Shown here piece after piece: positions 2,606 through 30,037 of a DNA stretch of 64,000 nt (positions are counted from its first letter, which is position 1; every line of letters begins with the position of its first letter). The DNA is from Thermoplasmatota archaeon (GTDB lineage: Archaea; Thermoplasmatota; JAKEGO01): assembly GCA_028279595.1 (NCBI GenBank), contig JANQNK010000008.1, positions 32,001 through 96,000 of the forward strand. The letters are read 5' to 3'. Under the pieces are notes generated by a model. That model did no database searches and had not been told where the DNA came from. It worked only from the letters and a program-made list of their open reading frames with translations. A program made the position numbers and the translations under genes.

Positions 2606-5600
2606 CTATCTCTTTGAGCGAGCGGGTGCCCTTCCGGGCTTTCCGACCTGAGGTGTCTCGGTAACGCGGTCGGAGTTCATGATGCCTAGGTAATCGTTCG
2701 TCAGCCTTGTACCGCCACCCCTCACCGTGACGACGACACCCTTCTCCCGCAGCGCCCTGAGGTGGTAGGCGACGGCGGGCTGCGTTACTTTCATCTTCTT
2801 CGCGAGCTTTGCCTGGGTTATCCCGGGGTTGGAACCGACGATCTCGACAATCCTGACCTCCGCTCCCCTGAGCTGGAACTCGGGGACCTTGTATCCGAAC
2901 GGATAGAAGCGCTTGCGGAAGCCGTCGTTCCTGCTCTTGATGAAGCCGGCCGTCTCCAGCACCCGGAGGTGATAGCCGGCGGAACCGTTCGGCAGTGCCA
3001 GCTGCTTCTTGATGAGGCTGAAGTGCGCTCCGGGATTCTCGAGGATGTACTCGACGAGCTTCCCGCGGGTCTTCTGGTCCGTGATCTTCTTTGTCCTGAG
3101 CTTGGAGTAGAGCGGGAAGAGCATGGAGAGGAAGAGGTAGAACCCGACTCCGGTGAACGCGAAGGCCGTCAGGACCCCCGCAGCGGCGACGCCGGCTATC
3201 AATCCCTGTTCGTCCGAGTTCGGGGGCCGGAAGAAGGGCTTCGCGCCGTCGTCCTCGCCGTCATCATTGTCCACGTAGAGGACGACGCTGTCCTCGTCGG
3301 AGTGGTGGTATCCGTCGTACGATATCACAACGATGGTGTGGTTCCCGTCATCCAGGTCGGCGGTCTTGATCCTGTAGGTCCAGCTCGTCTTCCCATCGGC
3401 GTACTTCCAGGAACCGTTGTCGATCTTGACCTTGACCCACTGGATGATGCCGTTCGAGTCCCAGGCCGTTCCCGAGAGCTCGACCGTCCCGTTGACCTCG
3501 TCGCCTGTCTCGTGGGATGTTATCTCCACTGTGGGCTTCCTGTTGACAATGACCTTGCCCTTGACGGGGTCGCTCTTCACGTCCTCGTCATCGACGGTCC
3601 ACAGGTAGATGTCATGGGTACCCAGTGAGAGTCCGTCGGTCGTGAAGGTCGAGTTGGTGCCCTCGTAGAGCTCCTCGTCGATGCTCGAGGCCCACAGGTA
3701 CTTCGCGATTGAACCGTCGTCGACGCCGCCCGCCTTGAAGGTGACCTCGGCGCCGTAGAGGGCCGGGCTCGGGGATATCGACAGGATGACCGCGGATGGT
3801 TCACCGTTTATCGTCACGGTCCCTTCGACCTCGTCGCTCCAGGTCCCATCGGAGTCCTTGACCTTGAAGTAGATGGTGTGGGTGCCGTTCGACAGCTTCT
3901 TCGTCGAGAACACGAAGTGGGGTCCGTAGTAGAGGAGGCCGTCGATGCTCGAGCGCCAATGGTACTTGATCGTTCCCTCGGAACCGGTCCCGTTGAAGGT
4001 CACGTATTCGCCCTGGTCGGCCGACTCGGGCGAAATGCCCACGATCTCCGCCTCCGGCCTCTCGGTCTCGTTCTCGTCCTCGCTGCCGTTGACGTTGAGA
4101 TAGGTGTAGTAGTAGTCGCTCAGGGCGCCGTCGTCGTCCCTGACCTTGACCTTTATCGTGTGGTTCCCGTCAGAGAGCCCGGTCTCCTGGAAATGGTCGG
4201 ACTCGCCCTCGTAGAGCTCGCCATCCTTGAACGAGTACCAGAAGTACCAGACCACCTCGCCGTCCGGATCGGTGGCGTTCACGTGGAAGTACACCGTATC
4301 GTTCTCTTCCGCCGGGTCCGGTGTGATATACACATCGGTGATACTGGGTCCGACGTTCTTCGTACCGTTTATCGTGACATGGTCGTAGGCGTAGTCGCTT
4401 GCCAGCTCCTCATCATCGTAGACCTTGAGCTTGATGGAGTGGTTGCCGACGGACAGATCATCGGTGGTGAAATGGCTCTTGTTGCCTGCATACAGCTGGC
4501 CGTCCTTTGAAGAATACCAAACGTACCATATGATATCGCCGTCGGGATCGGACCCGCTTCCGTAGAAGGTCACTGCCTCACCTTCCTCCGCGTGGTCTGG
4601 ATCGATCTCGAGGATGGTCGCGTTCGGCTTCTGGTTCTCCGAGCCGTTCACGACCAGATGGGAGTATGCATAATCACTGTGTGCGTCGTCGTTGTCGTAG
4701 ACCTTCAGCTTGATCGTGTGGTTGCCGACGGACAGTTCACTGCATGTGAACGAGGTCTCGTTTCCCTCGTAGAGCTCTCCGTCCTTGGATGAATACCAGA
4801 CGAACCAGTCCACGTAGCCGTCGGGGTCCTGACCGCCTCCCTTGAAAGTGACGTTCTCGCCCTCCTCGGCCGGGTTTGGCGTGATGTCGAATATGGTGGC
4901 ATTGGGCCTCTGGTTCTCGTCGCCCTCGATGACGACATAGGATTGAGCGTAATCGCTGTGGGCATCGTCATCATCCCACACCTTGAGCTTGATGGTATGA
5001 TTTCCGATGGACAGGTCGTTCGTAGTGAACGAGCTCGAGTTTCCCTCGTGGATCCAGCCGTCGAAGGAGGAGTACCAGTCGTACCACACGACCTCACCGT
5101 CAGGATCGGTACCTTTGCCGTAGAAGGTGACGTTCTCGCCCTTCTCGGCGGGATTCGGATCGATCTCCAGGATCTCGGCCGTAGGGCTCTGGTTCTCAGT
5201 ACCGTTGATGACGAGGTGATCGTAGACGTAATCGCTCGTCGCGTTATCATCGTCCCTGACCTTGTGTTTGATCGTGTGATTCCCCGAGGACAGGTTGGTT
5301 GTCGAGAAATGGCTCTCGTTACCTTCGTAGAGCTCGCCATCGATGGACGAATGCCAGTAGTACCAGACGACCTCGCCGTCGGGATCGCTGGCATTGCTCG
5401 TGAATGTTATGGAATGGCTGTTGTTGGCCGGGTTCGGCGATATCCCGCCGATGTCGGCGATCGGTGCGTGGTTGCTGTCCTTTACCTTGAGTGTCTCGTG
5501 ATCGTACTCGCTCCAGGTGTGATTGTTGTCCATCACCCAGAACTTGATCTTGTGCTCCCCTATCGAAAGGTTCGAGTACGTTGTCGAGTTGGAGGATCCG

Positions 5601-6808
5601 TTGTAGAACACTCCGTCGATATCGGAGGCCCACCGGTACTTGATGATGGTGCCGTCCTCGTCCTCGCCGTAGCCTGTGAACGTCACATCATCGTCATCGA
5701 AGGCTGGTGCTGGTGATATCGATGAGATGTGGGCCGAAGGTGCCTTGTTTCCGGTGGATCCACCATCGGGTTCCATGAGTGGATACCGGTCCTCGTTGTT
5801 CCCTTCACCATCGATCTGGTACGCGGTATCGCCGATCCCGTCCTCGTCGGCGTCCGTACCTTCGTAATCGTCCCAGTAGTTGCCTTCCTCGCCGTCGTCC
5901 CAATCTAAGTTGTCATCGGAATTGGACACGCAGAGGGTCTGGGTCGAATTCGTATGATTGGTATCATTGCTTCCATAGAATTGGTTGTGATGGATGGTGA
6001 TGTTGTTGAAGCCGCCGCTCCCGATCTGGATGCACCATCCCCAGTGATCCGTGATGTTATTCCCGGTGATCAGCACGTGGTTCACTCCACCTGGCCAGCC
6101 GTAGAAGATTATTCCGAGATGGCTATCGGCGATGTAATTGTCGGTGATCTCGACGTCCCGGCAGTCGACCAACCTGATGCAGTTCTCTGGAGCACCTGTT
6201 ATCTCATTGCCATCTATCGTCAGGTTATGGGAATTCTTCCACTGGATCCCTGCTCCGAAGCTCGCAGTCCTGATGATGCATTCGCGCACTTCGGACCAGT
6301 TGGCGCACTGTGCCTTGATGGCATGGGAATTGATCCCCTCTATCAGGCAGTCCTGGATGAGGATCTCCTCAACATACCGCATACCGATGACCCCGTAGGA
6401 CCAGTGATGGTCGGAACCTGTGATGTTCATCTCCTTGATGACGACGTTGTAGCCATTGATCTCGATGGTGTCGACCCTGTACTCCTGGGAGTGGAGCCAG
6501 GTCTCACCCGTCCCATTCCCGATCAGGGATACCGAGTTGTTGACGTAGATGTTGCCGGAGTACTGTCCAGCGTATATCCGAATGGTATCCCAGTCACTGG
6601 ATGCGTTAAGGGCGTCCTGGATGTTGTCGTGATCTGCCCATGCCCCACCGTCGTCGTCCACGACGATCTCGTTGCCGGCGGAGGCCCCGGATGAGACCAG
6701 GTACAATGACGCCAAGAGGAGCGATACTATCGCCAGCATCCGGAGTCCTGCCGCCAGATTGATTTCCATTCTCGAACAATCGGGGATATTCCTACTTATC
6801 GAGCTCAT
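2606..6808 (-). CDS. 1400-aa membrane-tethered transcription factor candidate: signal peptide, NosD-like beta-helix, 8 PKD/Ig-like repeats, Ig-like domain, TM segment, tandem winged-helix (COG3398-like)
   Basis: N-terminal hydrophobic signal; NLDWDDGEEGNYWDDY; ~92-aa repeats; TM GLIAGVAAAGVLTAFAF; two NPG-initiated HTHs (NPGAHFSLIKKQL..YHLRVLE; NPGITQAKLAKKM..YHLRAL). Confidence 0.85.
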   Translation of the reverse strand: MSSISRNIPDCSRMEINLAAGLRMLAIVSLLLASLYLVSSGASAGNEIVVDDDGGAWADHDNIQDALNASSDWDTIRIYAGQYSGNIYVNNSVSLIGNGTGETWLHSQEYRVDTIEINGYNVVIKEMNITGSDHHWSYGVIGMRYVEEILIQDCLIEGINSHAIKAQCANWSEVRECIIRTASFGAGIQWKNSHNLTIDGNEITGAPENCIRLVDCRDVEITDNYIADSHLGIIFYGWPGGVNHVLITGNNITDHWGWCIQIGSGGFNNITIHHNQFYGSNDTNHTNSTQTLCVSNSDDNLDWDDGEEGNYWDDYEGTDADEDGIGDTAYQIDGEGNNEDRYPLMEPDGGSTGNKAPSAHISSISPAPAFDDDDVTFTGYGEDEDGTIIKYRWASDIDGVFYNGSSNSTTYSNLSIGEHKIKFWVMDNNHTWSEYDHETLKVKDSNHAPIADIGGISPNPANNSHSITFTSNASDPDGEVVWYYWHSSIDGELYEGNESHFSTTNLSSGNHTIKHKVRDDDNATSDYVYDHLVINGTENQSPTAEILEIDPNPAEKGENVTFYGKGTDPDGEVVWYDWYSSFDGWIHEGNSSSFTTNDLSIGNHTIKLKVWDDDDAHSDYAQSYVVIEGDENQRPNATIFDITPNPAEEGENVTFKGGGQDPDGYVDWFVWYSSKDGELYEGNETSFTCSELSVGNHTIKLKVYDNDDAHSDYAYSHLVVNGSENQKPNATILEIDPDHAEEGEAVTFYGSGSDPDGDIIWYVWYSSKDGQLYAGNKSHFTTDDLSVGNHSIKLKVYDDEELASDYAYDHVTINGTKNVGPSITDVYITPDPAEENDTVYFHVNATDPDGEVVWYFWYSFKDGELYEGESDHFQETGLSDGNHTIKVKVRDDDGALSDYYYTYLNVNGSEDENETERPEAEIVGISPESADQGEYVTFNGTGSEGTIKYHWRSSIDGLLYYGPHFVFSTKKLSNGTHTIYFKVKDSDGTWSDEVEGTVTINGEPSAVILSISPSPALYGAEVTFKAGGVDDGSIAKYLWASSIDEELYEGTNSTFTTDGLSLGTHDIYLWTVDDEDVKSDPVKGKVIVNRKPTVEITSHETGDEVNGTVELSGTAWDSNGIIQWVKVKIDNGSWKYADGKTSWTYRIKTADLDDGNHTIVVISYDGYHHSDEDSVVLYVDNDDGEDDGAKPFFRPPNSDEQGLIAGVAAAGVLTAFAFTGVGFYLFLSMLFPLYSKLRTKKITDQKTRGKLVEYILENPGAHFSLIKKQLALPNGSAGYHLRVLETAGFIKSRNDGFRKRFYPFGYKVPEFQLRGAEVRIVEIVGSNPGITQAKLAKKMKVTQPAVAYHLRALREKGVVVTVRGGGTRLTNDYLGIMNSDRVTETPQVGKPGRAPARSKR
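3545..5750 (-). repeat. Eight tandem ~92-aa PKD/Ig-like coding repeats
   Basis: Recurring NxxPxAxIxxIxPxPA...DPDGxxxWYxWxSxxDG.LY.G...LSxGNHTIKLKVxDDD. Confidence 0.85.
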
Positions 6809-6850
6809 GATGATCCCTCGTTCCTTTCGTGGTTTTCATCCGGGAGGAGC

Positions 6851-6890
6851 ATATAAGTAAAGATTGGAACGAGTCTTTATAACGTCGACC
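6851..6890 (-). promoter_or_regulatory. TATA box and conserved upstream motif TAAAGATTGGAACGAGTCTTTA (6858-6879, + strand) of the 1400-aa gene
   Basis: AGATTGGAAC-N3-TCTTTA recurs upstream of the paralog at 13114-13132; the TAAAGA/TCTTTA arms are inverted repeats. Confidence 0.6.
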
Positions 6891-6925
6891 GAACGTGGAT
6901 CCATTGACTGGCTATTCCATCCAGA

Positions 6926-9900
6926 TCACTTACGGACCCGTGCGCGGAAGTCCTTTGTCACGAGGCATCCGTCCTTCCTTGACGTTCGGACTACACCCTT
7001 GGATTTCAATGATTTCAGGTGGTAGGAGACTGCTGGAGGTGTCACCTTCATCTTCTCCGCGAGCTTCCTCTGTGAAATCCCAGGATTCGATGCGATGACC
7101 CTGAGTATCTGCTTCTCCTTCCTCGTGAACTCCACCTCAGGCACGTCGTATCCATGTGGGTAGAACCTGCGATAGAAACCGTCAGTCTGGCTCTTGAGGT
7201 AGCCATTCCTCTCGAGTATGCGAAGGTGATGGCCGAGCGAACCGTTCGGAAGGGCCAGGTCCTTCTTGATCAACTGGTAGTGGGCCCCTGGATTGTCGGC
7301 GAGGTAATCGACGATCTCGCCCCTTGTCTCATTCTTCATGACATCCTTGCCCTTGACCCTCGAATAGAGAGGAAGGAACGCGAACAACGCGTATCTACCC
7401 CGGTCCGACGATGCGACCGCACCGAAGGCCAGGACAGCTATCAGTGCCATGGCGCCTATTGCCGGGGTGGACGTAAGAGGGATGTTCAGACCGGTGTCCT
7501 CGTCCCGGTCCGTCGGTTCGACCTCATCCGGATCCTCATCCTCCGCCTCGACCGTGAGGTATAGCTTCCCGAGATCGGAGTAATGGTTCCCGTCATAGCT
7601 CCTGATATTGATCTGGTAGGTCTCGTTCGAGAGTCCCGATGTGTTCCATTTGAACGACCACATTGTCGTACCCGTAGCGGTCTTCCATGACCCGTCGCCT
7701 ATCTGGTACTCGATCCTCTGGATCGACCCATCCTCGTCAGATGATGTCCCGGATACGGTGACGGTTCCATTAACGGTCGACCAGGACGATGGTGAATTGA
7801 TAGTGACCGAGGGTCGTACGTTTACAGTCACCGTCGTCGTCACAGTATCGCTCCATACTCCATTCCCATCCTGGACCTTCAGGGATATCGTGTGTGTCCC
7901 ATTCGACAGGTCGTCAGTATAAAGCGTGCCGTCGGTTCCGTTGTACAGCTCGCCATCGATGCTCGATGTCCAGACATACCTGGTGATCTCGACGTCGTCC
8001 ACGCAGTTCGGTGTGAAAGTAACATTGTTACCCTCTGCAATGATCGACTTGGAGACGGTCCAGATCCGTGCAACAGGTATGCCGTTCACAGTGACATTGG
8101 CGGTCTGCCGTTCACCCCATAATCCTTCATTGTCGATGGAATGGAGCGTGATCTCATGTGTCCCGTTCGATAGGGACGATGTTGACCAGACCTGCGAGGT
8201 TCCGTTGAATAATTCCCCATCGATTGATGATGTCCACACAAGAAGAGCCACCGAGCCATCGAAATCGAATCCGGTGCCGTTGAATGTGATCTCGTCACCC
8301 TCGTCGACGCTTGAGGGGTGGACGCTCTTGATCGTGGCGACCGGTGCGATGTTCTCTCCGGATGAGGACTCCTCGTTCCATGGTTCCATCAGAGGATACG
8401 GGTCCTTGACCTGGCCAGAAGAACCGTTTCCGGTACCGTTGTCGCCTCCCGAGGAATCGGATGCTATGTAATATGGAGTATCCCCGATCCCGTCATCATC
8501 ATCGTCCTCTCCATCATAGTCGGACCAGTAGTTGCCAGCGGACCCATTATGCCAAATTGCAGAACCATACTCATCATATACTTGCGTATTGACCCGATTG
8601 TCGATGAAATCATTGTGGTGGATGGTTATGGTTCCCCCGAGCTTTCGTTCTATGTAGATGCCGCCATGGTTCTCGACGAACCTGTTGAACTTGATCGTGT
8701 GGTTGAACGCATCATCGATCTCGATGCCATATTGGCCAGAGCCATTGACAACACCACATTTCTTGATTGTATTGTTGCGTATGACAATATTATCGGAGCT
8801 TCTTGAAAAAATACCAATTCGGTCGGTCCTCGTTATTAGATTTCCAACGATATGGATATTATCTGCTTCCCTGAGGTAAACGCTGTTCTGGTTCGTTCTT
8901 ATCTCGTTGCCCCAAATTTTAATTGAATATCCTTCGTGGACCTCGATAGGTACGTCAGAATTCACCAGATAGCAATCATGGATCTGACTGTTCCCTGACC
9001 TATCGAAATAGATACCAACGTCGTCTTTTGATGTGATATCGCATGAGGTGATATTTATCTCCATTGAGTTCCTTATCATGAGTCCAGTCGAGTTCGAATT
9101 GAGATCACAATCCTCAACAACCACATCGTTCGACATGACCATATGGATGGAATAATCGCACTTCGTTGTCGTAACGTTCTTTATTATACTATCATTGGTG
9201 AATCCGATAAGTATTGGATACGTCGTATCGCGGAGTGTCTGATCTCTGATCGTGGCTTTGGTACAATTGGCGATGATGATCTGGCCTCCTCCAATTGGAA
9301 CCGTGACATTCTCCTGGTTCTTGATGTAGAGGATGGGGTTCCCGTCGATCGTGTTCGATTGATCGATGTAATGGGATGACCACTCGTCCGCTTCCGACCA
9401 AGAAGGATAATAGGAGGGGTATGTCCGAATGAAAAGGCATCCGTTGTAGAGGGTATTGTTCCGGAACGTCAGGTCGACTGTATCCTGGATGAATATGCTA
9501 AGACCTGGCGATGTGATCGTGTTTCCATGGTAGGACGAATGGTCCGAGCTTGCGATATCAATGCCGAAAACGCTTGCCCATATCGTATTGTTGATGATGA
9601 GGTTGTTGATATTACTGTGGTGATAAATACCGACACGATTCGATTTAATCTCATTTCTAATGATACTCGTTTCAATGTTCCTGTAGGACCAGATCCCGTT
9701 GCTGCTGGCATCGAGAAGTGAGTTGGATATCGTAATATTGTCATTCCATCGTAAATAGATACCAGTAGAAACAGTATCCATTGAATCAGACCCGTTCGGG
9801 CCTCCACCACCTATGACCTTTCCAACACATTGAACATTGTCTACAGTACTGTTGTCGCAGTTCTGTAACCTTATTCCAGTACGAACCTCATGATCGCAAG

Positions 9901-12900
9901 TGATGTTCGTGATGGATACGTAACTGGACCATTCGACAGATATTCCTTCGTCCTTGTGAGACGACAGGTGGATCCCGTCGAGGAATGAGTTGTCACAACT
10001 TTCCAAACGTAGGCCAGTAGAGTCGCCGTTGCTGCCTGTTACGGAAATGTCACTGAGGTTGATCTGGACTCCGATGACCTGGACGATGGGACCCCGGTCA
10101 CCATAGATTTCAGAGGTCGTTCCATTCCCGACTATTGTCACTGCGATTGTGATGTTGATGTATTCGTGATATTCACCGTCGTATATACGGATCTCATCAC
10201 CATCCTGAGCTGCGTCCAGTGCGTCTCCGATCGATGAGAAATCCGCACCAGCCCAATCATCATCGACTATCAAGGTCACGGGGTCGCGGGTCCCATTCCT
10301 TCTCATAAGAGGACGAAGGTCCACAGACCCGGATGAGCCATTGAATGTATATGGGGTGTCACCTATTCCATTGCCATCGCTGTCCACTCCAGAATAATCA
10401 CCCCAATAGTTGCCGTAGAAACCGTCGTCCCAGTAATTGTCATCACTTTCGACGAGTCCCTGCTCGACGCCATCATCGGTGTTGTCGATCGCGTTGTTGT
10501 GGTGTAGAATGTTATCTATTGAGTCCTGATCGATCGTGATCGCGAATTCGTCATTATCCATAATGTAATTGTATACCACTGTGATCCCAGATGTCTCTTC
10601 GAGCACGATTCCGCCACCTGAATTTCCGATTATTCTGCATCTCTCGATAGTTCCATTCGTGACTCCTTCGCAGACCAATCCATCGCCCGAGTTCCTTCTG
10701 ATGGTAGAGTCCCTGAATTTTGCCCGTTGAGAGTTCGATACGATGATCGCATCGGAACCGCTATCCCTGATCGTGGAATTCGCGAACCTGAACGCTATGC
10801 AATCGACTATGGAGAGACCGACTCCCAGGTTGTTTTCGATCACACATTCATCGATGCGCAATCGTGCTACATCTTCCGCATAGAGACCCGACCCGTTCGA
10901 GGAAGAGCCGCCGCCCTGGATCGATAGACCACTGATGATCGTATCATCGGACATCACTGATAATGTAATCCCGGACCCACCTGCATCGACGGTAGTTCCA
11001 CTCGAACCATTTCCTACGATCGTCAATGGCAGGTTCACAACTATCTTCTCGTTGTAGGTCCCCGAATAAACCAGGATCATGTCATTCGATGTCGCGTTTT
11101 GAAGTGCTGATGAGATCGTGGTATGGGATGCCCAGGATCCTGGGTCATCATCGACAATCAGTAGGGACCTGTCGGTCAGAGGGTACCTGTCCCAGATGGT
11201 GATGTTCTCATCGTTATAAATGTAATACGGGGACTCGCCAACTCCATCGTCATCCGTGTCATAACCTTGATAATCGGACCACCAGTTCCCCTCGGACCCA
11301 TCATCGTATTGGTTGTTCAATGTTCCATTCGGATTGCGCCCTTGGTCGGAGATCTGGGGAGAAAGGCCGTTTTCGAGGAAGGTGTTGTGATGGATCAGAT
11401 TGCTATCGCCATCGACGTCAATGCCATATCCTGTATTGTCCTGGAACAGGCACCAGGATATGATGTTGTCGTCACCATTGACAAAGACCGGAGTACCATC
11501 ATTTCCAATGAACCTCGAATTGCGGATCGAGCTGTTCGATTTCAATTTGATACCGACACGTGAATTGTTACTGAAGGTCGAATTCAAGATCTCCAAAAAG
11601 TCGTTGTTTCCCATTTCATTGCCCCACCCTTCAGAATTATTGTGTATATGAACATCATGCAGTACGACCGAATCGAGATTGCGGATAAAGAGCGGATCCT
11701 CTTTGCAATATGAGATGGTCATGTTTTCCATCGTGAGATTTCCTCCTCCGTATTCCCAAGCGAATCCTGGACCCTCTGCCGAGGTCAATATGGTATCCCG
11801 AATGGTGAAATCATCGCAACGATCAACCTGGATCGCTCCGCGCCAATCTCCAGATTCGTTGCAAATGAATCTGCTGTTCGCTACAGTGATTCGACCACAA
11901 CCATCGAATTCTATCCCGTAAAAGATGTCGTACGTCCACCCATCCAGGAGGAGGTCCTCACAGTAGCTGAAGCGAATGGTATCTGAATAATTGAACAACG
12001 AGATATTGGACATCTGAAGACCTTCGACCTTATAGAAATCCAACCACCTAGTATCTGTGAAGGTGAGGTTTTCGACGACCACGTTCACCGAATCATCGAT
12101 GCTCAGTGAATCGCCAGGTCCACTGATCCTGCAGTTCGAAACGGAAGCGTCGTACAGATCGCTAAGTTTCAGTCCAAAATAGTCCATACGATAGATTTCA
12201 CAATTCTCGATCGTCACGTTGTCACAGTATTCTATCCATGCACCGGTCATCTGATCTGAGAAGGAACCGTTAGATAGGGTAACATCTGAACTGAAGTATG
12301 CCTGCAATCCGGATTTCGCATCATTAGTGGTCAGACCATCGACCATCACGCTAGTACAATTGATAATAATGACTTGACCAGCATTGGAAGGTACGATGAT
12401 ATCGCTCTGGTCCGTATACCTGTGGATGTCCTTCCCGTTCGTGGTGCAATCGACCACGGTGGTAGTGCCCGCGTTCGTGGCGTTCGAAACGCGTTCGTAG
12501 AAACCACAATCGAGGAAAGAACAATTTGAGACGTATACGTTCGTGGACGATGAGCTGAGATAGATCCCGCCCCCATTGAATTCGTCGAATATACAGTCCT
12601 CTATCGATACGTTGTCCGACCATAGAATGCTGATACCTCGAGCATTACTGCCCGATCCGTTCAAGCGCAGTCCTTCGACACGAACATCGTCACCCTCGAC
12701 AGCGATCAGAGGGGAACTGCCATCGAGTTCGAGGAATGATGAGGAACCATTGCCGATGATCGTCAACTCTTGATCGACCACGACGGCACCGCCATAGACT
12801 GAGTCCATTGAGTACGTTCCAGAATATACAAGGATCGTATCACCGGCGGAACTGTCATCTACAGCGTCGGCCAGATTGTCGTGATCCGCCCAATCCCCGT

Positions 12901-13060
12901 CGTCATCATCGACGACCCACGTCTTCGCTCCGACCTCCGGCACCAGGAGTAGGGAGACTACCAACACGAGGCCGAGGATGAATAACACAATAGGACGATG
13001 AAACATCCTCGACCCCAGGAACATTCGGGAAACCATATCGCTCTTCCCTTTCCATATCAT
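6926..13060 (-). CDS. 2044-aa membrane-tethered transcription factor candidate: signal peptide, 3 NosD/parallel beta-helix modules, 2 PKD-like repeats, Ig-like domain, TM segment, tandem winged-helix
   Basis: Three modules, each opening with VDDD and closing with GNxWxDYxGxDxDxxGxGxxPY; C-terminus PLYSRV..RGEIVDYLADNPGAHYQLIKKDLALPNGSLGHHLRILE..RRFYP..NPGISQ. Confidence 0.85.
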   Translation of the reverse strand: MIWKGKSDMVSRMFLGSRMFHRPIVLFILGLVLVVSLLLVPEVGAKTWVVDDDDGDWADHDNLADAVDDSSAGDTILVYSGTYSMDSVYGGAVVVDQELTIIGNGSSSFLELDGSSPLIAVEGDDVRVEGLRLNGSGSNARGISILWSDNVSIEDCIFDEFNGGGIYLSSSSTNVYVSNCSFLDCGFYERVSNATNAGTTTVVDCTTNGKDIHRYTDQSDIIVPSNAGQVIIINCTSVMVDGLTTNDAKSGLQAYFSSDVTLSNGSFSDQMTGAWIEYCDNVTIENCEIYRMDYFGLKLSDLYDASVSNCRISGPGDSLSIDDSVNVVVENLTFTDTRWLDFYKVEGLQMSNISLFNYSDTIRFSYCEDLLLDGWTYDIFYGIEFDGCGRITVANSRFICNESGDWRGAIQVDRCDDFTIRDTILTSAEGPGFAWEYGGGNLTMENMTISYCKEDPLFIRNLDSVVLHDVHIHNNSEGWGNEMGNNDFLEILNSTFSNNSRVGIKLKSNSSIRNSRFIGNDGTPVFVNGDDNIISWCLFQDNTGYGIDVDGDSNLIHHNTFLENGLSPQISDQGRNPNGTLNNQYDDGSEGNWWSDYQGYDTDDDGVGESPYYIYNDENITIWDRYPLTDRSLLIVDDDPGSWASHTTISSALQNATSNDMILVYSGTYNEKIVVNLPLTIVGNGSSGTTVDAGGSGITLSVMSDDTIISGLSIQGGGSSSNGSGLYAEDVARLRIDECVIENNLGVGLSIVDCIAFRFANSTIRDSGSDAIIVSNSQRAKFRDSTIRRNSGDGLVCEGVTNGTIERCRIIGNSGGGIVLEETSGITVVYNYIMDNDEFAITIDQDSIDNILHHNNAIDNTDDGVEQGLVESDDNYWDDGFYGNYWGDYSGVDSDGNGIGDTPYTFNGSSGSVDLRPLMRRNGTRDPVTLIVDDDWAGADFSSIGDALDAAQDGDEIRIYDGEYHEYINITIAVTIVGNGTTSEIYGDRGPIVQVIGVQINLSDISVTGSNGDSTGLRLESCDNSFLDGIHLSSHKDEGISVEWSSYVSITNITCDHEVRTGIRLQNCDNSTVDNVQCVGKVIGGGGPNGSDSMDTVSTGIYLRWNDNITISNSLLDASSNGIWSYRNIETSIIRNEIKSNRVGIYHHSNINNLIINNTIWASVFGIDIASSDHSSYHGNTITSPGLSIFIQDTVDLTFRNNTLYNGCLFIRTYPSYYPSWSEADEWSSHYIDQSNTIDGNPILYIKNQENVTVPIGGGQIIIANCTKATIRDQTLRDTTYPILIGFTNDSIIKNVTTTKCDYSIHMVMSNDVVVEDCDLNSNSTGLMIRNSMEINITSCDITSKDDVGIYFDRSGNSQIHDCYLVNSDVPIEVHEGYSIKIWGNEIRTNQNSVYLREADNIHIVGNLITRTDRIGIFSRSSDNIVIRNNTIKKCGVVNGSGQYGIEIDDAFNHTIKFNRFVENHGGIYIERKLGGTITIHHNDFIDNRVNTQVYDEYGSAIWHNGSAGNYWSDYDGEDDDDDGIGDTPYYIASDSSGGDNGTGNGSSGQVKDPYPLMEPWNEESSSGENIAPVATIKSVHPSSVDEGDEITFNGTGFDFDGSVALLVWTSSIDGELFNGTSQVWSTSSLSNGTHEITLHSIDNEGLWGERQTANVTVNGIPVARIWTVSKSIIAEGNNVTFTPNCVDDVEITRYVWTSSIDGELYNGTDGTLYTDDLSNGTHTISLKVQDGNGVWSDTVTTTVTVNVRPSVTINSPSSWSTVNGTVTVSGTSSDEDGSIQRIEYQIGDGSWKTATGTTMWSFKWNTSGLSNETYQINIRSYDGNHYSDLGKLYLTVEAEDEDPDEVEPTDRDEDTGLNIPLTSTPAIGAMALIAVLAFGAVASSDRGRYALFAFLPLYSRVKGKDVMKNETRGEIVDYLADNPGAHYQLIKKDLALPNGSLGHHLRILERNGYLKSQTDGFYRRFYPHGYDVPEVEFTRKEKQILRVIASNPGISQRKLAEKMKVTPPAVSYHLKSLKSKGVVRTSRKDGCLVTKDFRARVRK

Positions 13061-13102
13061 TTGATCCCCTCATCGTCTTCTTCGTGTTATTACCCTTTTG
13101 AG

Positions 13103-13140
13103 GTTATATATGCAGATTGGAACACTTCTTTAATTATCGA
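13103..13140 (-). promoter_or_regulatory. TATA box and conserved motif AGATTGGAACACTTCTTTA (13114-13132, + strand) upstream of the 2044-aa gene
   Basis: Same motif and internal spacing as at 6861-6879. Confidence 0.6.
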
Positions 13141-13262
13141 TCGTCCTGCCTGGATTGGGATTTGGAAAGACGGCCTCCAGATTACCGATCGTTCGATCAC
13201 TCGTTCGGACATACGGGCCGATCCGCATGACTGGCTCTTGCGCTGTCAGGTCGATCTCACGT

Positions 13263-14852
13263 TCAATTCCGGCGTTTTCTCACCAGTACCACGACGGCGA
13301 TGGCCGCGACGACGAACACCATCTCCATCCCGGGGCTGGACCCGCCGCCATCTCCGCCGGCCTTCGGTTCCGTGGTCACATCGATGTATCCTTCATCGTA
13401 CGAGCTGAACCAGGGATCGTAGTTGATCATCCTCAAACCGGCAGCGTTCATCTCGTAGTTGGTGGTGTCGCCGATAGACGACAGCGGGACCACGATGACG
13501 ACCTCATCGTCTTCAGGGATAGCGTAGGAGATCGTGTCTATATCATCGGCGACCTGGTCCATGATCATCGCGGTATCCATCATCGCTGTTGCCACGTAGA
13601 CAGCGTTGTCGAAGTCCGTCAGGTCCTTGGTCCCGGACGGGAACATGTAGACCATGAAGGCATTGAGGTCGTCGCCGGAGCTGACGTTCATGGTCCCGTC
13701 GATCTCGATCTCCAGGAACAGATGCTCGCCGGACGTCAGAGCGGTGAACTGGACGATATCGATCTCCGGATAGCCTCCGACGACCTTGTCATCCTCGTCC
13801 ATCACATCGTCGAGGTCGTCGTCCTCCGCGTATATCTCTTCGGCGATATGGACCATGATATCATCGGATGTCACGAGATCGTCCTCATCCGTCGTTGTCA
13901 ATGTTATGACGAAGGACCCGATGTCATGACTGAGCCAAACTGGATTCTCCGATGTCGACTCCTCCGTGATCCCGTCCGATGCGTTGTAGTCCCATGACCA
14001 GGTGAGCTCCTTCTTCGAATAGATCGTGCAATAGTCCCGCAGCCTCAGATTCTCACCCGGTTCGCCCAGGACGTCCCCGGCTATCGGACCGATCAGCGCG
14101 ACACTCGAGTTGATGAAGACGTTGTCGTCGCAGTATTGGTCCATCTCAAGGGGTCCATCGACGTTGCCGGCGACCTCGTTGAGGATGAACATGTTGTCAT
14201 CGGACAGCGCCATGGATATGCCGTAGGCGCCGTTCGACGAGATGTTGTTTCCGCTTATGTTGTTGTTGTCAGAGAGCGAGATGTACAACCCATCGTCGGA
14301 GTGGTTGATGCACACGTTGTCGACCACAGTGTTGTCGTCGGAGTCGAAGATGTAGATCGCAGTATAGTCGCCCTCCATGATCGTATTCCCGGTGACGACA
14401 CAGTTGAACACGTTGTCCAGCCTGATGCCGTAATCGTTGTCGACGAGGAGGTTGTCCGTGATCGTGGTGTCGTTGGCCTCGCAGTCGATTCCCTTTCCGA
14501 GATAGGGAGCACCCGTCACCATGAAGTCGCTGAACGTGCAGCCCGGAGCCGTTATCGTCACCACGTTACCGAAGCCGGTCCCGATGTCAAGGATTGTCTG
14601 GTCCGAACCGTTCCCCATCAGGTACAGCTGTTTATCGATCTCGACCTCTTCGGAATATGAACCGTTGAAGACGAGGATGGTATCTCCGGCAGTGGCGTTC
14701 TCGATCGCACTCTGTATGGTATTGTAGTCTGCCCATGGTCCGTCATCGTCGTCGACGAAGATCGTCTCTCCAGTCGATGATCCCGATACCAGGACGATCG
14801 CCAGAACGGTCAACAGCACGGCTGGTATCAACTTCGAATATCCCCTCTTCAT
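13263..14852 (-). CDS. Surface protein: NosD/beta-helix plus PKD-like domain, with a PGF-CTERM-like anchor
   Basis: Signal peptide; VDDDDGPWADYNTIQSAI; C-terminus SPGMEMVFVVAAIAVVVLVRKRRN; ATG 14852 preceded by GGTGA. Confidence 0.8.
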   Translation of the reverse strand: MKRGYSKLIPAVLLTVLAIVLVSGSSTGETIFVDDDDGPWADYNTIQSAIENATAGDTILVFNGSYSEEVEIDKQLYLMGNGSDQTILDIGTGFGNVVTITAPGCTFSDFMVTGAPYLGKGIDCEANDTTITDNLLVDNDYGIRLDNVFNCVVTGNTIMEGDYTAIYIFDSDDNTVVDNVCINHSDDGLYISLSDNNNISGNNISSNGAYGISMALSDDNMFILNEVAGNVDGPLEMDQYCDDNVFINSSVALIGPIAGDVLGEPGENLRLRDYCTIYSKKELTWSWDYNASDGITEESTSENPVWLSHDIGSFVITLTTTDEDDLVTSDDIMVHIAEEIYAEDDDLDDVMDEDDKVVGGYPEIDIVQFTALTSGEHLFLEIEIDGTMNVSSGDDLNAFMVYMFPSGTKDLTDFDNAVYVATAMMDTAMIMDQVADDIDTISYAIPEDDEVVIVVPLSSIGDTTNYEMNAAGLRMINYDPWFSSYDEGYIDVTTEPKAGGDGGGSSPGMEMVFVVAAIAVVVLVRKRRN

Positions 14853-14886
14853 AGTGGTCACCGGTTTGACCAACGAGGTAGGGATA

Positions 14887-15969
14887 TTAAAACCTGGCCC
14901 CCCGCTTCCCGAGCGCCTTCAGTGCAATGGCCTTGTCCGGGCAGACCTCGTGACAGCAGAAGCACCGAATGCACTTCTCGTATTCGATCACTGCCCTGTC
15001 TTCGGGGATCGTGATCGCGTCCTTCGGACAGATCTCCTCACACCTGCCGCAGGCTGTGCATCTCTCGGTGATCACCGGACTACGCTTTGGCGTTCGTTTA
15101 CCGGTGGCGATGTGGCCAGCTCCCGAGGGCAGTTTGAACCCCATCACCATTACATCTTCAGGTGTCAGGACCGGGTAGTCGATGCTGTCGGGCCACAGGT
15201 CCCTGAACTTCGCCCTCTTCAGCGTCGGGACGCCGACGGGTTCGATGTTGAGCATCCTGCAGACCGCGATGTCCATTGCCACGGCGTCGGTCGACGCCAT
15301 CAGGACGCCGGTGTCGACAGGGTCCCCGCCCATGGGACCATTGCCCACCATCCCCATGATCCCGTCCAAGATGAACAGGTCAGGAGGTGTGACGGAAAGG
15401 ACGTCCAGGAGCATGTCGGCGAATGCTTGCTTCCTTGGATACACCGCATGGTACCTGGCCTTCTCGGCCCCCGGGACGATGCCGTACATTATCTTCGTGG
15501 CCAGGGTCATGACCTGGTAGACGTGCGTCTTGAGCTTCGGGAGGGCGATGATCCTGTCAGCACCCAGTGCGAAATCGCAGACCTTCAGACGCCGTATGCG
15601 TTTTCCGCCCTTGACATCGACCTTCGTCCAGCCGGTGTCGTAGTTCAGTTCGATCCCGAGGTCATCGGCGATCGCGGTCATCCCGGTGAAGTCGTATGCG
15701 TCCTTCAATCCTTTTTTCGAGAAGCGTCCGGCGGGGGAGTCGCCGATGAACGGCTCCCCGCCCGCGTCGATGACGGATTTGGCGACAGCTGAGATAACAT
15801 CAGGGTGGGTCGTGACGGCGGTCGAAGGGTCGCTGGCCTGGAGCAGGTTCACCTTCAAACAGACCCGGTCACCCTTCGAAACGTACCTGGCCATCCCGCC
15901 AATGGGTTCGACAAGGGACCCGATGTCAACGGCCCGATATTCCTGTTTCGAGATGGCGACCTGGCTCAC
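14887..15969 (-). CDS. DUF362-domain Fe-S protein with C-terminal 2x[4Fe-4S] ferredoxin
   Basis: LKVNLL...TTHP, LPKLKTH, GNGPMGG; CTACGRCEEICP and CIRCFCCHEVCP. Confidence 0.88.
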   Translation of the reverse strand: MSQVAISKQEYRAVDIGSLVEPIGGMARYVSKGDRVCLKVNLLQASDPSTAVTTHPDVISAVAKSVIDAGGEPFIGDSPAGRFSKKGLKDAYDFTGMTAIADDLGIELNYDTGWTKVDVKGGKRIRRLKVCDFALGADRIIALPKLKTHVYQVMTLATKIMYGIVPGAEKARYHAVYPRKQAFADMLLDVLSVTPPDLFILDGIMGMVGNGPMGGDPVDTGVLMASTDAVAMDIAVCRMLNIEPVGVPTLKRAKFRDLWPDSIDYPVLTPEDVMVMGFKLPSGAGHIATGKRTPKRSPVITERCTACGRCEEICPKDAITIPEDRAVIEYEKCIRCFCCHEVCPDKAIALKALGKRGARF

Positions 15970-16052
15970 GGGGGGGAGTCACATCATGGATACTTAATCC
16001 TGACCGCTGAAACCGTGGCAACCCTTTTCTAATCCGGAACGGTTCCCGGACC

Positions 16053-16895
16053 ATGTCTGGCATCGTTTTCCTGGGCACGAGGGACCTGGAGGCCGTCAGG
16101 CGCTTCTACGTCGAAGAGGTCGGGTGCACGATATGGCTCGAACAGGCCGACTGCATCGTCCTGAAGCACGGCAACATGCTCCTCGGGTTCTGCAGCAGGG
16201 ACATACTCGAGATGGGCGGGATCATAACGTTCTTCCTCGACTGCAAGTGCGACGTCGACGTCATGTACAAGCAGATGGGCGAACGCGCGGTCACCCCGCC
16301 GAAGGAGAACTCGAAGTACGGGATCTACCACTTCTTCGCCGCGGACCCGGAGGACAGGCCGGTCGAGTTCCAGTGCTTCCTCCATCCGGTGGCGCCGCAC
16401 CTTCCCGGGGACGACCTGCTGAGGACCAGGAGGAGCGTCAGGAAGTTCGAGGACAGACCGATACCCGAGGACGTCATCGTCCAGGTCTTCGAGCTTTGCA
16501 GATGGGCCCCTACCTCGATGAACAGGCAGCCCTACTATTACATGATAATAGATGACAGACCGACGATGGACTTCCTGGCCTCGGTCCGGGGTTCCAGTTC
16601 GGCCCCGATAGCGGCTGGTCCGCTGGCCATCGCTATCGGTTCGGACCCGGAGCTCTCGAAGAGGCACATCGAGGACGGGGACATAGCCGCCTACCACCTC
16701 CTCCTGGCCGCCTGGGTCCATGGTCTGGGCACCTGCTGGATCGCTGACATGGACCGGTCCGAGGTCAAGGAGCGATTGAACATCCCGCAGGACCACTACG
16801 TCGCGACGGTGACGCCTCTCGGTTATCCCTCGACCGTTCCGCAGCCGCCCGGACGGAAGGACGTCGCGGAGTTCCTCAGGTTTCCCGAGGACTAG
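16053..16895 (+). CDS. VOC/glyoxalase-nitroreductase fusion protein
   Basis: N-terminal TRDLEAVRRFY...HFFAADPEDRPVEFQ; C-terminal RRSVRKF, WAPTSMNRQP, GLGTCW. Confidence 0.85.
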   Translation: MSGIVFLGTRDLEAVRRFYVEEVGCTIWLEQADCIVLKHGNMLLGFCSRDILEMGGIITFFLDCKCDVDVMYKQMGERAVTPPKENSKYGIYHFFAADPEDRPVEFQCFLHPVAPHLPGDDLLRTRRSVRKFEDRPIPEDVIVQVFELCRWAPTSMNRQPYYYMIIDDRPTMDFLASVRGSSSAPIAAGPLAIAIGSDPELSKRHIEDGDIAAYHLLLAAWVHGLGTCWIADMDRSEVKERLNIPQDHYVATVTPLGYPSTVPQPPGRKDVAEFLRFPED

Positions 16896-17440
16896 AACTT
16901 GTAGGGTCTCATTACTGTAGTATAGTAGCCACTGCCCGTGTATAGCGCAGGCCGTACGTCCACGATGTCGATGCCCTTCTTCCTGTGGGTGTAGACCGCT
17001 TCCGCTATGATCAACTGGTGATCTCCCGCCTCGACCTCGTTGACGACCTTGCACTCGTAGATGACTATGGCCTGCTCGATCAGGACAGAGGAGGTCTTCA
17101 CGGGTTCCCTGCGGGTAAGTCCGGTCTCGGCGAACTTGTCCACCTTCTTGCCGGACCGGGTTCCGCAGTAATGGACCTTGTCAGCATGCTCTATCGGCAT
17201 CAGGTTGATCGCGATCTCCCCGGTCTCCTGGACCTTGTCATAGGTGTGCCGGGATTTCCGGAGCGATATCATGAACAGCGGTGGGCTGGCCGATACCTGC
17301 GACAGCCAGGCTGCTGCCATCATGTTGTCGCCGCTGCTCACCAACGCAGCCGGCATGAACTGCATCTCCATGGCAATGGCTTTTGCGTCTCCCGTCTCCC
17401 ATATCTCGTCCTCGGCGTTCATTCGATCCACTCCTTTCAT
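16892..17440 (-). CDS. Flavin reductase family protein
   Basis: NMMAAAW, SRHTY, CGTRSGKKVDKF, ECKVV..GDH. Confidence 0.88.
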   Translation of the reverse strand: MKGVDRMNAEDEIWETGDAKAIAMEMQFMPAALVSSGDNMMAAAWLSQVSASPPLFMISLRKSRHTYDKVQETGEIAINLMPIEHADKVHYCGTRSGKKVDKFAETGLTRREPVKTSSVLIEQAIVIYECKVVNEVEAGDHQLIIAEAVYTHRKKGIDIVDVRPALYTGSGYYTTVMRPYKF

Positions 17441-17916
17441 TCCGTGAACAGTGAAGAGATGATCCGGCAGGCATCCTCCAGGAGCCTGCGGTGGTGAGGG
17501 GGGAAGGCGTCCGGCCTGTGCGAGTCGATGTCCAGTTCACCCACGATCATGCCGTCCACGAATATCGGTAAGACGATCTCGGACCTCACGCTGGGACTGC
17601 ACGAGAGGTAGTTCGTCTCCTCGAGGACGTCCGGTACCACGAAGGTCTCAAGCGTCTCGGCGGCCTGTCCGCAGATGCCCCTGCCGAACGGTATCCTCGT
17701 GTGGTCTGTCGGATCGCCCACGTATGGCCCGAGGACGAGCATCCTCTCCTCGACCGGATCTACCAGGTAGAATCCTGTCCAATCGTAGTCCTCGAACCTG
17801 TCGTCCAGCAGTTCGCATATAGTCATAAGTTTCTGGTCCCTTTCACCTGGCCCGTCGACTATGGCACGGATCCCATCGATGACGGCGGATGCGGTCAAAG
17901 AGAAGTCGTCGCCCAT
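17437..17916 (-). CDS. GAF-domain protein, free methionine-R-sulfoxide reductase (MsrC)-like
   Basis: DWTGFY, LGPYVG, IPFGRGICGQAA, YLSC, SEIVLPI, LDIDS; start probably ATG 17916. Confidence 0.85.
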   Translation of the reverse strand: MGDDFSLTASAVIDGIRAIVDGPGERDQKLMTICELLDDRFEDYDWTGFYLVDPVEERMLVLGPYVGDPTDHTRIPFGRGICGQAAETLETFVVPDVLEETNYLSCSPSVRSEIVLPIFVDGMIVGELDIDSHRPDAFPPHHRRLLEDACRIISSLFTE

Positions 17917-17920
17917 AACA

Positions 17921-18352
17921 TCACTCGCCGAAAGCGCCGATGAGGAAGGACCTGATGTCCTCCCGCAGCTTCCTGAAGGCTTCGAGCCTGTCCTTGGCAT
18001 AGTAGGGATCGGGGAATCCGTGGTGCATGACGAACCTCGCGTTCGAGAACGTCGGACAGATCTCCTGGGCATTGTCGCACAGGGTCATCACGTAGTCGAA
18101 TGTCCGGTCCTCGAAATCACGGATGTGCTTCGACTTCTGCGCGGAGATGTCTATCCCGACCTCCTCGAGTACCTTGATCGCCCAGGGGCTGACTGGCGAC
18201 GGCGCGACGCCGGCGCTGGTCACCTCGTACCTGTCGCCGTACATCTCCCGCAGGAGTCCCTCGGCCATCTGCGACCTAGCAGAGTTCGCGGTGCAAACGA
18301 ACATGACTGTCTTCTTTTCCTTCCCGCCGGTTCCCTTCTTCGCCTTGGCCAT
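17921..18352 (-). CDS. arsC: Arsenate reductase / low-molecular-weight phosphatase family
   Basis: FVCTANSARSQMAEG P-loop; TLCDNAQEICP; FPDP. Confidence 0.88.
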   Translation of the reverse strand: MAKAKKGTGGKEKKTVMFVCTANSARSQMAEGLLREMYGDRYEVTSAGVAPSPVSPWAIKVLEEVGIDISAQKSKHIRDFEDRTFDYVMTLCDNAQEICPTFSNARFVMHHGFPDPYYAKDRLEAFRKLREDIRSFLIGAFGE

Positions 18353-18426
18353 GATAACCACTCCCTGGAACGGTATCGAGACTTATTAGTTTTACCTGAA
18401 ACGGGGGCCCTTCATAAAATTCGCCA

Positions 18427-19062: not shown

Positions 19063-19086
19063 TCCGTCCGTGGGACCATCTCCCCT

Positions 19087-19434: not shown

Positions 19435-19490
19435 TCACATCTCCCCCGTCGGTGAAATGAATCGCCGCATAAAACATCTCGCCCGGGCCG

Positions 19491-28804: not shown

Positions 28805-30037
28805 TCAGATGTCCTCGTCGTCCGACTCGTCCGGAGCGATGAGGTAGCAGTGGGTCTGCCGGCCCTCCTTGATCACGTCGATGAGACCCTCGTGGTACAT
28901 TGCCCGCACGTTGAGGTTCACCAGCTGCTTGCGCGCGCCAAGGGCCACGCAGATCTCCTTCTGGGATATGCCGGGATTATCTGCGATCAGATTGAGGATC
29001 CTGAGCTGGAACGTGTCCATCTCGATGGACTCCTCGACCTTCATGCCTATCGGGTAGAACCGGCGGAACCGGCCGTCCATCACGGACTTGACCAGCTTCT
29101 CCCGTTCGAGTACCTTGACGTGATAGGCGAAAAGGCCGTTCTTCAGACCCAGCTTCCGCATGATGCCGGAGTAGTGATCGCCGGGATTCGCGATGATGTA
29201 ACCGTGGATCTTACCTCGGATGTAATTGTTCAGGACCGTTCGGCCGGTGACCTTCGCGTATAGCAGGCCGAAGGCCGAGAAGACCAGATAGATGCCGGAC
29301 TGGGAAAGGGCCAGCACGACGAGGAACGAGATGAGGCCAGCAAGCCAGTAGTAGTACGACGGCACGGATGTCACGGTCTCCCTGCCCGGTTTCGACGATG
29401 CTACCCTGATGTTCACCTGCTGGGTGGTGACACCGTCAGTGGCTAGGATGGTCACATTGCTGCCTCCGAGCTCCGTCGTGTCCACGAAGAATGCGAACTT
29501 CGACGTCCCGGCGGCCTCGGTCCATTCGCCGTCCTCGACCCTGAAACTGACCGAAACGACACCTCGGTCGTCGGTGGCCTCGCCCTCGACCATCACAACG
29601 CTGTCGGCCGGGATGACCTCGGACGTGACGGTGATCTCGGGGGGTGTGGCCGGCGTCTCGGCCGAGACGACGTTCGAGTACGAGAATGCGTGGGAATAGC
29701 CCTCGGCCGATATCATGAAGTGGTAGGTCGCGCCCTCGTCGAGTCCTGAGATGGTCTTGGAGGTCAGTCCGGTGCCTACCACACCGCTCACATACGTGCT
29801 CCAGACCCTTGTAGGGACCATGAGCTCGGAGACGTCCGAATAGTGTATGATGGTCTGGTTCAGCTCGGGGGACGCCTCCTGTGTCCACGTTATGCGCACG
29901 CTCTCGCTCCCGAGGACCTCGATGCCCGTGATCTCGGGGGCGGGCGGTGCGGGTCCCTCCTGGCCGGTAGCGTCACCGGTGAGGTAGAAAGAGGCGATGA
30001 TCACGACCAATATTGCCAGGATACCGACGGCTCGCAC
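28805..30037 (-). CDS. 410-aa membrane-tethered transcription factor candidate: signal peptide, FN3, Ig-like domain, TM segment, tandem winged-helix
   Basis: FN3 (VRITW..GLDEGATYHFMISA); LLYAKV..RGKIHGYIIANPGDHY..NGLFAYHVKVLE..RRFYP..NPGISQ. Confidence 0.85.
   Translation of the reverse strand: MRAVGILAILVVIIASFYLTGDATGQEGPAPPAPEITGIEVLGSESVRITWTQEASPELNQTIIHYSDVSELMVPTRVWSTYVSGVVGTGLTSKTISGLDEGATYHFMISAEGYSHAFSYSNVVSAETPATPPEITVTSEVIPADSVVMVEGEATDDRGVVSVSFRVEDGEWTEAAGTSKFAFFVDTTELGGSNVTILATDGVTTQQVNIRVASSKPGRETVTSVPSYYYWLAGLISFLVVLALSQSGIYLVFSAFGLLYAKVTGRTVLNNYIRGKIHGYIIANPGDHYSGIMRKLGLKNGLFAYHVKVLEREKLVKSVMDGRFRRFYPIGMKVEESIEMDTFQLRILNLIADNPGISQKEICVALGARKQLVNLNVRAMYHEGLIDVIKEGRQTHCYLIAPDESDDEDI

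Follow-up and report, generated by a model that had tools for sequence, protein, structure and literature searches.

Two giant genes at the locus

This study concerns two adjacent giant genes, P0001 and P0002, on contig JANQNK010000008.1 of a Thermoplasmatota archaeon, which were analysed within a stretch of 64,000 nt that is referred to here as the window. The genes share one orientation, are separated by 117 nt and both possess uninterrupted reading frames (Table 1). An earlier reading of this DNA by sequence alone (the sequence-only reading) had described two co-oriented giant genes that each encode a signal peptide, an ectodomain, a membrane segment and a basic tail, and intact open reading frames (ORFs) were found exactly where it had placed them. 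Its module counts, one beta-helix with eight PKD-like repeats in P0001 and three beta-helix modules with two repeats in P0002, were reproduced by motif counting, and a Big_7 domain is to be added to each protein. At its N-terminus P0001 exhibits a hydrophobic segment (aa 20-38) and, after it, an ASA-G site, and its immunoglobulin (Ig)-like array gives multiple PKD, K319L-PKD and Y_Y_Y matches in Pfam. P0002 scores 291 bits with Beta_helix over nine stretches, followed by PKD_4, Big_7 and the two tail domains, and each of its beta-helix modules ends in a Ca-type cap, GNxWxDYxGxDxDxDGxG[DE], at aa 591, 883 and 1509.

The tandem winged-helix tail

The tail of both proteins consists of two successive winged helices (wH), termed wH1 and wH2. 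PF24266 matches the two tails with 62.3 and 66.8 bits, against a gathering cut-off of 31, and HTH_24 follows directly downstream with 49-59 bits, accompanied by matches to MarR_2, HTH_5 and HTH_20. The tail can thus be assigned, as had been proposed, to the COG3398-type double winged helix-turn-helix (HTH), given that PF24266 lies above its cut-off and a second wH of the ArsR/MarR type adjoins it, and the sequence motif that had been quoted for the tail reads as it was given. A profile of the tail family matches a 77-aa 'putative DNA binding protein' (PDB 5DUK) in its wH1 part with an E of 1e-16, and its wH2 part matches many MarR, AdcR, SmtB and ArsR regulators by sequence. A Foldseek search with the structural model of the tail returned the tandem-wH proteins RPC34, ScpB and SelB, and also MarR/SlyA regulators, with E ~1e-4. 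Among the paralogs in this genome wH1 is near-invariant and the recognition helices of wH2 differ between paralog subgroups. The tail is predicted to bind DNA and may act in signalling.

Topology and membrane module

The topology was assessed from hydropathy, charge, positive-inside bias and the density of N-glycosylation sequons. P0001 and P0002 each start with a hydrophobic stretch that has a cleavage site of small residues, and each exhibits one hydropathy peak of 2.0-2.1, which lies ~165 aa before the C-terminus. Their ectodomains are acidic, with 14-18% D+E and ~5% K+R, and the tails contain 20% K+R; the ectodomains contain 3.2-3.9 sequons per 100 aa, compared with 0.8 in all long ORFs. 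Across 148 representatives of the family described below, the net charge per residue is -0.06 before the transmembrane (TM) segment and +0.08 after it. These features indirectly support the layout of the sequence-only reading, a sensor outside and a winged HTH tail inside, so that both proteins are predicted to be type-I single-pass proteins with the N-terminal ectodomain outside and the C-terminal tandem wH inside.

The TM helix of P0001 and P0002 is rich in Gly, Ala and Thr. AlphaFold2 (AF2), applied to the last 215 aa with an alignment of 14 paralog tails, gave a model with a mean pLDDT of 83 that comprises the TM helix, a kink at a conserved Gly, a long helix that spans the second hydrophobic stretch and PLYSK and continues into helix 1 of wH1, and finally wH1 and wH2. 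A homodimer prediction with two copies of the TM segment and tail scored 0.40, with the mark at 0.42, and weighs neither for nor against a dimer.

A polysaccharide-type beta-helix

The beta-helix of P0001 was modelled by AF2 with a pLDDT of 87 and a pTM of 0.89, and in Foldseek the model matched the polysaccharide lyase RbmB, the mannuronan epimerases AlgE4 and AlgE6, PL6 alginate lyases, a pectin methylesterase and phage tailspikes at TM-scores of 0.5-0.6. The modelled domain is of the general right-handed type that binds or processes polysaccharides, and it is plausible that it binds or even cuts glycans. The sensing of a polymer or of contact, as put forward in the sequence-only reading, appears reasonable given the resemblance of the modelled beta-helix to lyases, epimerases and tailspikes.

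A Thermoplasmatota-wide family

The genome that contains the window (2.29 Mb, 86% complete) encodes 14 proteins with this tail, 12 of which are membrane-anchored and two of which are soluble. The 12 anchored paralogs are distributed over six contigs and share a signal peptide, an ectodomain of 150-2,070 aa, a TM segment and a GxY...PLY[ST][KR] module; a third family member is present in the window itself (Table 1). When 1.84 billion cluster representatives were searched exhaustively with a profile, 15,242 matched at E<=1e-3 and 1,619 at E<=1e-30; a word-indexed homolog search gave 4 matches. Nearly all of the best 150 representatives have the tail at the C-terminus, and the proteins in this set are 164 to 2,280 aa long. 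A TM segment stands directly before the C-terminal tail in 148 of the 151 representatives checked, and the Y[ST][KR] of the GxY/PLYS[KR] juxtamembrane module is kept in 129 of 148. The named relatives are metagenome-assembled genomes of Thermoplasmata, Methanomassiliicoccales and Poseidoniia, and PF24266 is present in 158 of 201 genomes of the phylum that are at least 90% complete, with 1 to 27 or more matches per genome. Soluble two-wH relatives of 170-230 aa are common and resemble ordinary regulators.

The ectodomains joined to this tail are varied, which is the point on which a census had been proposed. In 63 complete representatives they contain 79 Pfam families, the counts being 17 for CARDB, 14 for PKD, 13 each for NosD/Beta_helix and NPCBM_assoc and 9 for Big_7, and FG-GAP and WD40/PQQ propellers are also present in the family. 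The architecture is not rare: it belongs to a family that extends across the Thermoplasmatota and reaches 27 or more copies in a single genome, it lies inside the published class of transmembrane transcription regulators (TTRs; PMC10269533), and a homolog of wH1 has a crystal structure in 5DUK. The further statement that no characterised example is known agrees with literature searches, in which no description or test of the membrane-anchored tandem-wH form was found.

Evolution of the locus

An ortholog of P0001, here P0011 (1283 aa), was identified on a JGI metagenome contig (L094) from an independent assembly, and its tail is 83% identical to that of P0001. The gene order of L094, Cu-ATPase ... 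GAF, flavin reductase, DUF362, P0011 and SfsA, is identical to that of the flanks in the window. Between DUF362 and P0001, however, the window has two extra genes, P0002 and a tail-less paralog of 536 aa, whereas L094 8849-14780 has only P0011 between DUF362 and SfsA. The G+C content at third codon positions (GC3) is 0.58 in the P0002 ectodomain, 0.72 in the P0002 tail and 0.79 in the P0001 ectodomain. The extra genes relative to L094 and the low GC3 of the P0002 ectodomain mark the locus as a variable surface-protein island, and positions 6926-14873 of the window look like an indel or a recently acquired island of this kind. Since the 536-aa gene lacks the wH tail and stands beside P0001 and P0002, one sensor type exists both with and without the regulator module.

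A comparison of P0001 with P0011 separates the domains by their rate of change. The beta-helix exhibits only 37% amino acid identity with a dN/dS of 0.57, followed by the PKD repeats, of which P0011 has one fewer (58%, dN/dS 0.30), and the TM and juxtamembrane segment (70%, dN/dS 0.34); wH1 is 97% identical with a dN/dS of 0.05, and wH2 is 78% identical with a dN/dS of 0.20. The values for wH1 and wH2, set against that for the beta-helix, indicate that the tail is functional and under strong purifying selection and that the ectodomain is fast-evolving.

A shared promoter element

Five beta-helix genes of the family, namely P0001, P0002 and three further paralogs, have the motif CCAATCT in their upstream region at 39-60 nt from the start codon, with a TATA box following it after 3-5 nt, and a GAGG Shine-Dalgarno-like site precedes the start codons of genes with CCAATCT-TATA promoters, including P0001. 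The strict pattern CCAATCT-N3-6-TATA occurs six times on both strands of the whole 2.29 Mb genome, and five of the six copies are the family gene sites; two matches lie in the window, versus 0.01 expected from shuffles. With at most one mismatch and a downstream ORF, ten sites were found in the genome, of which six belong to family members, including the third member in the window, and two to other secreted proteins (1,205 and 1,232 aa). Only the 7-mer and the TATA box are kept between the promoters of the paralogs, which argues for selection on them, and CCAATCT next to the TATA box is a candidate operator. Together with the contrast in selection between wH1 and the ectodomain, this element is a new and testable point.

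Outside this genome, the promoter of the L094 ortholog is near-identical to that of P0001, and family genes in genomes G002, G012 and G016 likewise have CCAATCT, or its variant CCAATCA, in front of them. A search with the strict pattern in 20 relatives gave mostly chance matches that lack a downstream gene and lie in distant or AT-rich genomes, with family-linked sites only in the same three.

Two side observations concern this element. A CCAATCT-like element stands beside a TATA box in other giant secreted ORFs of more than 3000 aa, 1205 aa (beta-helix) and 1232 aa (elsewhere in this genome, outside the window, on contig C18, + strand near 210212, and on C4 and C9), suggesting a shared surface-protein promoter class. 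At locus L074 (G002:C18:17500-26500), in a genome of the same order, a giant homolog whose promoter carries CCAATCTTTATTTATAT is split into a frame of 2543 aa and a tail-bearing frame of 274 aa that overlap by ~230 nt near the end of Big_7, which represents a frameshift, a pseudogene or an assembly error.

A membrane-tethered regulator as the favoured explanation

The explanation favoured here, for which belief and doubt are evenly balanced, is that P0001 and P0002 are glycan- or contact-sensing, membrane-tethered one-component transcription regulators that act from the membrane on their own genes and on related surface-protein genes. The two genes would be transcribed separately and give type-I single-pass surface glycoproteins, with a polysaccharide-binding-type beta-helix held outside on a stalk of Ig-like domains. 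The Gly-rich TM helix, the kink, the short interfacial hydrophobic helix and PLYS[K/R] would run as one helix into the two cytoplasmic wH. The TM module may switch its oligomeric state or its conformation when a glycan or a surface is bound, or when the ectodomain is damaged or lost, and this switch would alter DNA binding by the tail, in which the invariant wH1 would form the core and the variable wH2 the reading head. The likely targets would be the genes themselves and other large surface-protein genes with CCAATCT at the position of the transcription factor B recognition element (BRE). Action from the membrane is favoured because co-transcriptional insertion of such giant proteins would tether the regulator's own genes to the membrane, the place at which the C-terminal tail appears. 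The explanation draws on the TM segment before the C-terminal tail in 148 of 151 representatives, the selective constraint on the tail, its sequence matches to ArsR, MarR and SmtB regulators, the varied recognition helices of wH2, the promoter element and the likeness of the beta-helix to glycan-active enzymes.

Several observations weigh against this explanation. The linker between the membrane and wH1 has only ~12 residues, so DNA binding would be crowded at the membrane. The ectodomains across the family are of the adhesin/Ig type and not classical small-ligand sensor domains. Tandem winged helices elsewhere also bind protein or RNA, and the best fold matches of the modelled tail are RPC34, ScpB and SelB. 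The promoter element is rare outside close relatives: in loci from other genomes a scan placed it ahead of 2 of 39 family genes, and also ahead of 1 of 220 other long ORFs. This single ORF probably represents the N-terminal portion of a family gene that has been split, and a variant site in L091 escaped the scan (the sites at L074 and L091 were recognised by re-reading). The generic BRE of the genome is A-rich, CAAAA-NN-T-TATA, and CCAATCT overlaps its position; the two are not identical, and the idea that CCAATCT is merely this generic element was rejected. CCAATCT may alternatively represent a strong-promoter variant, or gene duplication may have copied it together with the genes.

Regulated proteolysis in the manner of Notch is the chief rival mechanism, although a somewhat unlikely one. 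Here the ectodomain would be shed or unfolded, a presenilin homologue (PSH) or a rhomboid would cut the Gly-rich TM helix, or a membrane-proximal protease would cut at PLYS[K/R], and the tandem-wH fragment would travel to the chromosome. The predicted type-I topology fits presenilin or rhomboid and excludes the logic of S2P (site-2 protease) or SPP (signal peptide peptidase), and PSH has been shown to cut the type-I stub C99 in vitro and to free its intracellular domain (PMC9282858). Genes for one PSH, one rhomboid and two to three S2P proteases are present in the genome, and both the Gly/Ala/Thr-rich TM helix and the widely kept GxY/PLYS[KR] module would be in keeping with cleavage. In the 201 phylum genomes the tail family is found almost only where PSH is present, and in taxonomic family f4 each was found in 0 of 29 genomes; however, this co-distribution rests on essentially one clade, genome G137 has family matches and no PSH, and PSH occurs without the tail family in f10, f17 and most of f31. 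Moreover, phmmer searches with the PSH, the rhomboid and two S2P of this genome found no protease gene in 368 kb flanking 42 family loci, and the position of the sole rhomboid (C18:385054-386199), two unrelated genes away from one paralog on C18, looks coincidental. If the cut fell inside the first TM helix, the fragment set free would also retain the second hydrophobic stretch. In its fullest form, P0001/P0002-type regulators would be the missing natural substrates of archaeal PSH (or rhomboid), the cut would be triggered when the giant glycan-binding ectodomain makes contact or is lost, and the cleaved tail would reprogramme a CCAATCT-marked surface-protein regulon in an archaeal Notch-like pathway, which we regard as improbable.

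The PSH homologue of this genome lies outside the window (C11:44599-46200, 534 aa). An insert of ~230 aa divides its Pfam match to presenilin/SPP into two parts (positions 2-81 and 90-280). A like split is present in the PSH ORFs (600-810 aa) of many relatives, and the insert can therefore be taken as a lineage-specific domain.

It is unlikely that P0001 and P0002 are structural surface proteins or adhesins in which the tandem-wH tail is a cytoplasmic anchor or adaptor that binds a protein partner, or that binds DNA non-specifically as a scaffold or nucleoid tether. The adaptor-type tandem wH of ScpB, RPC34 and RPC62 are the best fold matches, the family ectodomains are built from adhesin modules (CARDB, PKD, Ig, beta-helix and propeller), and the neighbouring 536-aa paralog holds this type of beta-helix in the membrane by a plain TM anchor; a near-invariant wH1 under differing ectodomains is likewise what one common partner would impose. 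By sequence, however, the tail matches bona fide ArsR, MarR and SmtB DNA-binding regulators, the common soluble two-wH relatives look like ordinary regulators, and the recognition helices of wH2 diversify between subgroups.

An assembly, frameshift or gene-calling artefact, for which the split homolog at L074 in relative G002 could be cited, has a negligible probability, since the frames of P0001 and P0002 are uninterrupted, the same fusion recurs in the 12 paralogs on six contigs, in the ortholog from the independent JGI assembly and in thousands of relatives, and 148 of 151 representatives share the layout.

Comparison with known systems and significance

Archaea possess few DNA-binding response regulators, and for this reason the coupling of the outside world to transcription is largely open in this domain. 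The tail family could be a main surface-to-gene signalling route in Thermoplasmatota, including abundant marine and sediment groups. It also offers experimental handles: a pair of paralogs with very different sensors and similar tails, a candidate operator, a constrained wH1, and a topology that makes presenilin-type processing testable.

A census by Demey, Gumerov, Xing, Zhulin and DiRita in 2023 recorded 1,384 archaeal TTRs, most of them single-pass (PMC10269533). To count as a TTR, a single chain must combine a predicted DNA-binding domain with one or more predicted TM segments, and P0001 and P0002 do so according to the Pfam HTH matches, hydropathy and the TM helix of the AF2 model. The characterised examples in that paper have an N-terminal DNA-binding domain, and the layout of P0001 and P0002 is not described in its text (PMC10269533). 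Compared with characterised TTRs, P0001 and P0002 differ in their inverted, type-I domain order, in their giant arrays of adhesin or glycan-binding modules and in their tandem wH.

ToxR, TcpP and CadC of bacteria and the regulators ArnR and ArnR1 of Sulfolobus resemble P0001 and P0002 as one-component systems with a domain outside, a membrane span and a wH or HTH inside. They have, however, an N-terminal DNA-binding domain, type-II topology, a small periplasmic sensor or none, and an HTH of the OmpR type (ToxR and CadC) or another type, and not PF24266 with HTH_24. The DNA-binding domains of P0001 and P0002 are C-terminal and of the ArsR/MarR type, and a signal peptide occupies the N-terminus. 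In ArnR an N-terminal HTH is followed by C-terminal TM segments (PMC13286277), and this order is reversed in P0001 and P0002.

The hybrid two-component systems (HTCS) of Bacteroides are likewise single chains in which an extracytoplasmic glycan sensor occupies the N-terminus and a DNA-binding domain the C-terminus, and Y_Y_Y is present in both. HTCS, however, relay the signal via HisKA, HATPase and REC to an AraC HTH, and no Pfam match to HisKA, HATPase_c or REC was found in P0001 or P0002 at E<=0.01. The soluble PF24266/COG3398-type proteins, such as HVO_0163, are the closest relatives by sequence; they are cytoplasmic, 140-230 aa long, and possess the same two-wH unit, to which P0001 and P0002 add a TM module and an ectodomain of 1,150-1,800 aa. 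All that is known of HVO_0163 comes from proteomics, in which this ArsR-type protein increases under hypochlorite (PMC10294847). Notch and APP with gamma-secretase share with P0001 and P0002 the type-I topology predicted for the latter, a large modular ectodomain and, as the counterpart of the tail, an intracellular domain that acts in the nucleus, and the genome of P0001 and P0002 encodes a presenilin homologue. The tail of P0001 and P0002 differs in being itself of a DNA-binding type and not a co-activator.

Neighbouring genes and other features of the window

The coordinates of the features described above are collected in Table 1.

Table 1. Features of P0001, P0002 and related genes in the window (positions count from its first nucleotide).
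Feature	Position	Strand	Description	Basis
P0001 gene	2606..6808	-	1400 aa, intact ORF: signal peptide, 1 beta-helix, 8 PKD-like repeats, Big_7, TM, tandem wH tail	
P0001 wH2	2693..2872	-	HTH_24/MarR/ArsR type, aa 1313-1372	Pfam, AF2
P0001 wH1	2888..3073	-	PF24266 (HTH_HVO_0163_N), aa 1246-1307	Pfam, AF2
P0001 TM module	3101..3202	-	Gly-rich helix aa 1203-1221, GFY kink, short second hydrophobic stretch, PLYSK at 1232	
P0001 Big_7	3326..3535	-	membrane-proximal	Pfam
P0001 Ig repeats	3539..5746	-	eight PKD/Y_Y_Y-like repeats, ~93 aa each	Pfam, motif counting
P0001 beta-helix	5774..6667	-	right-handed, NosD/CASH-type, aa 48-345	Pfam, AF2, Foldseek
P0001 promoter	6851..6867	-	CCAATCT, 4 nt, TTATAT; 43-59 nt before ATG	
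P0002 gene	6926..13060	-	2044 aa, intact ORF: signal peptide, 3 beta-helix, 2 PKD-like repeats, Big_7, TM, tandem wH tail	
P0002 wH2	6968..7126	-	HTH_24, aa 1979-2031	Pfam
P0002 wH1	7139..7333	-	PF24266, aa 1910-1974	Pfam
P0002 TM module	7358..7468	-	helix aa 1867-1885, DRGRY, short hydrophobic stretch, PLYSR at 1897	
P0002 beta-helix modules	8426..12922	-	three modules	Pfam, motif counting
P0002 promoter	13104..13120	-	CCAATCT, 3 nt, TATATAA	
Tail-less paralog	13263..14873	-	536 aa: signal peptide, P0001/P0002-type beta-helix N-cap, C-terminal plain TM anchor, short KRRN tail	
Third family member	28805..30037	-	410 aa, GTG start, membrane-anchored; variant promoter CCAAACT..TATATA at 30057-30075	

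The flanks of the surface-protein genes (1-2441 and 14887-21902) encode rubrerythrin, SfsA, a DUF362 Fe-S protein, a flavin reductase, a GAF protein and a Cu P-type ATPase with two HMA domains. They constitute a conserved redox and metal stress neighbourhood in the same order as on the JGI contig, and no functional link between them and the surface genes was apparent. Elsewhere the window contains large ORFs of 1446, 1219 and 1166 aa, at 46619-50959 (-) and 56371-63527 (+). Between 36000 and 42000 the AT and GC skews swing strongly (AT skew +0.24, then -0.39), at the position where the long ORFs switch strand.

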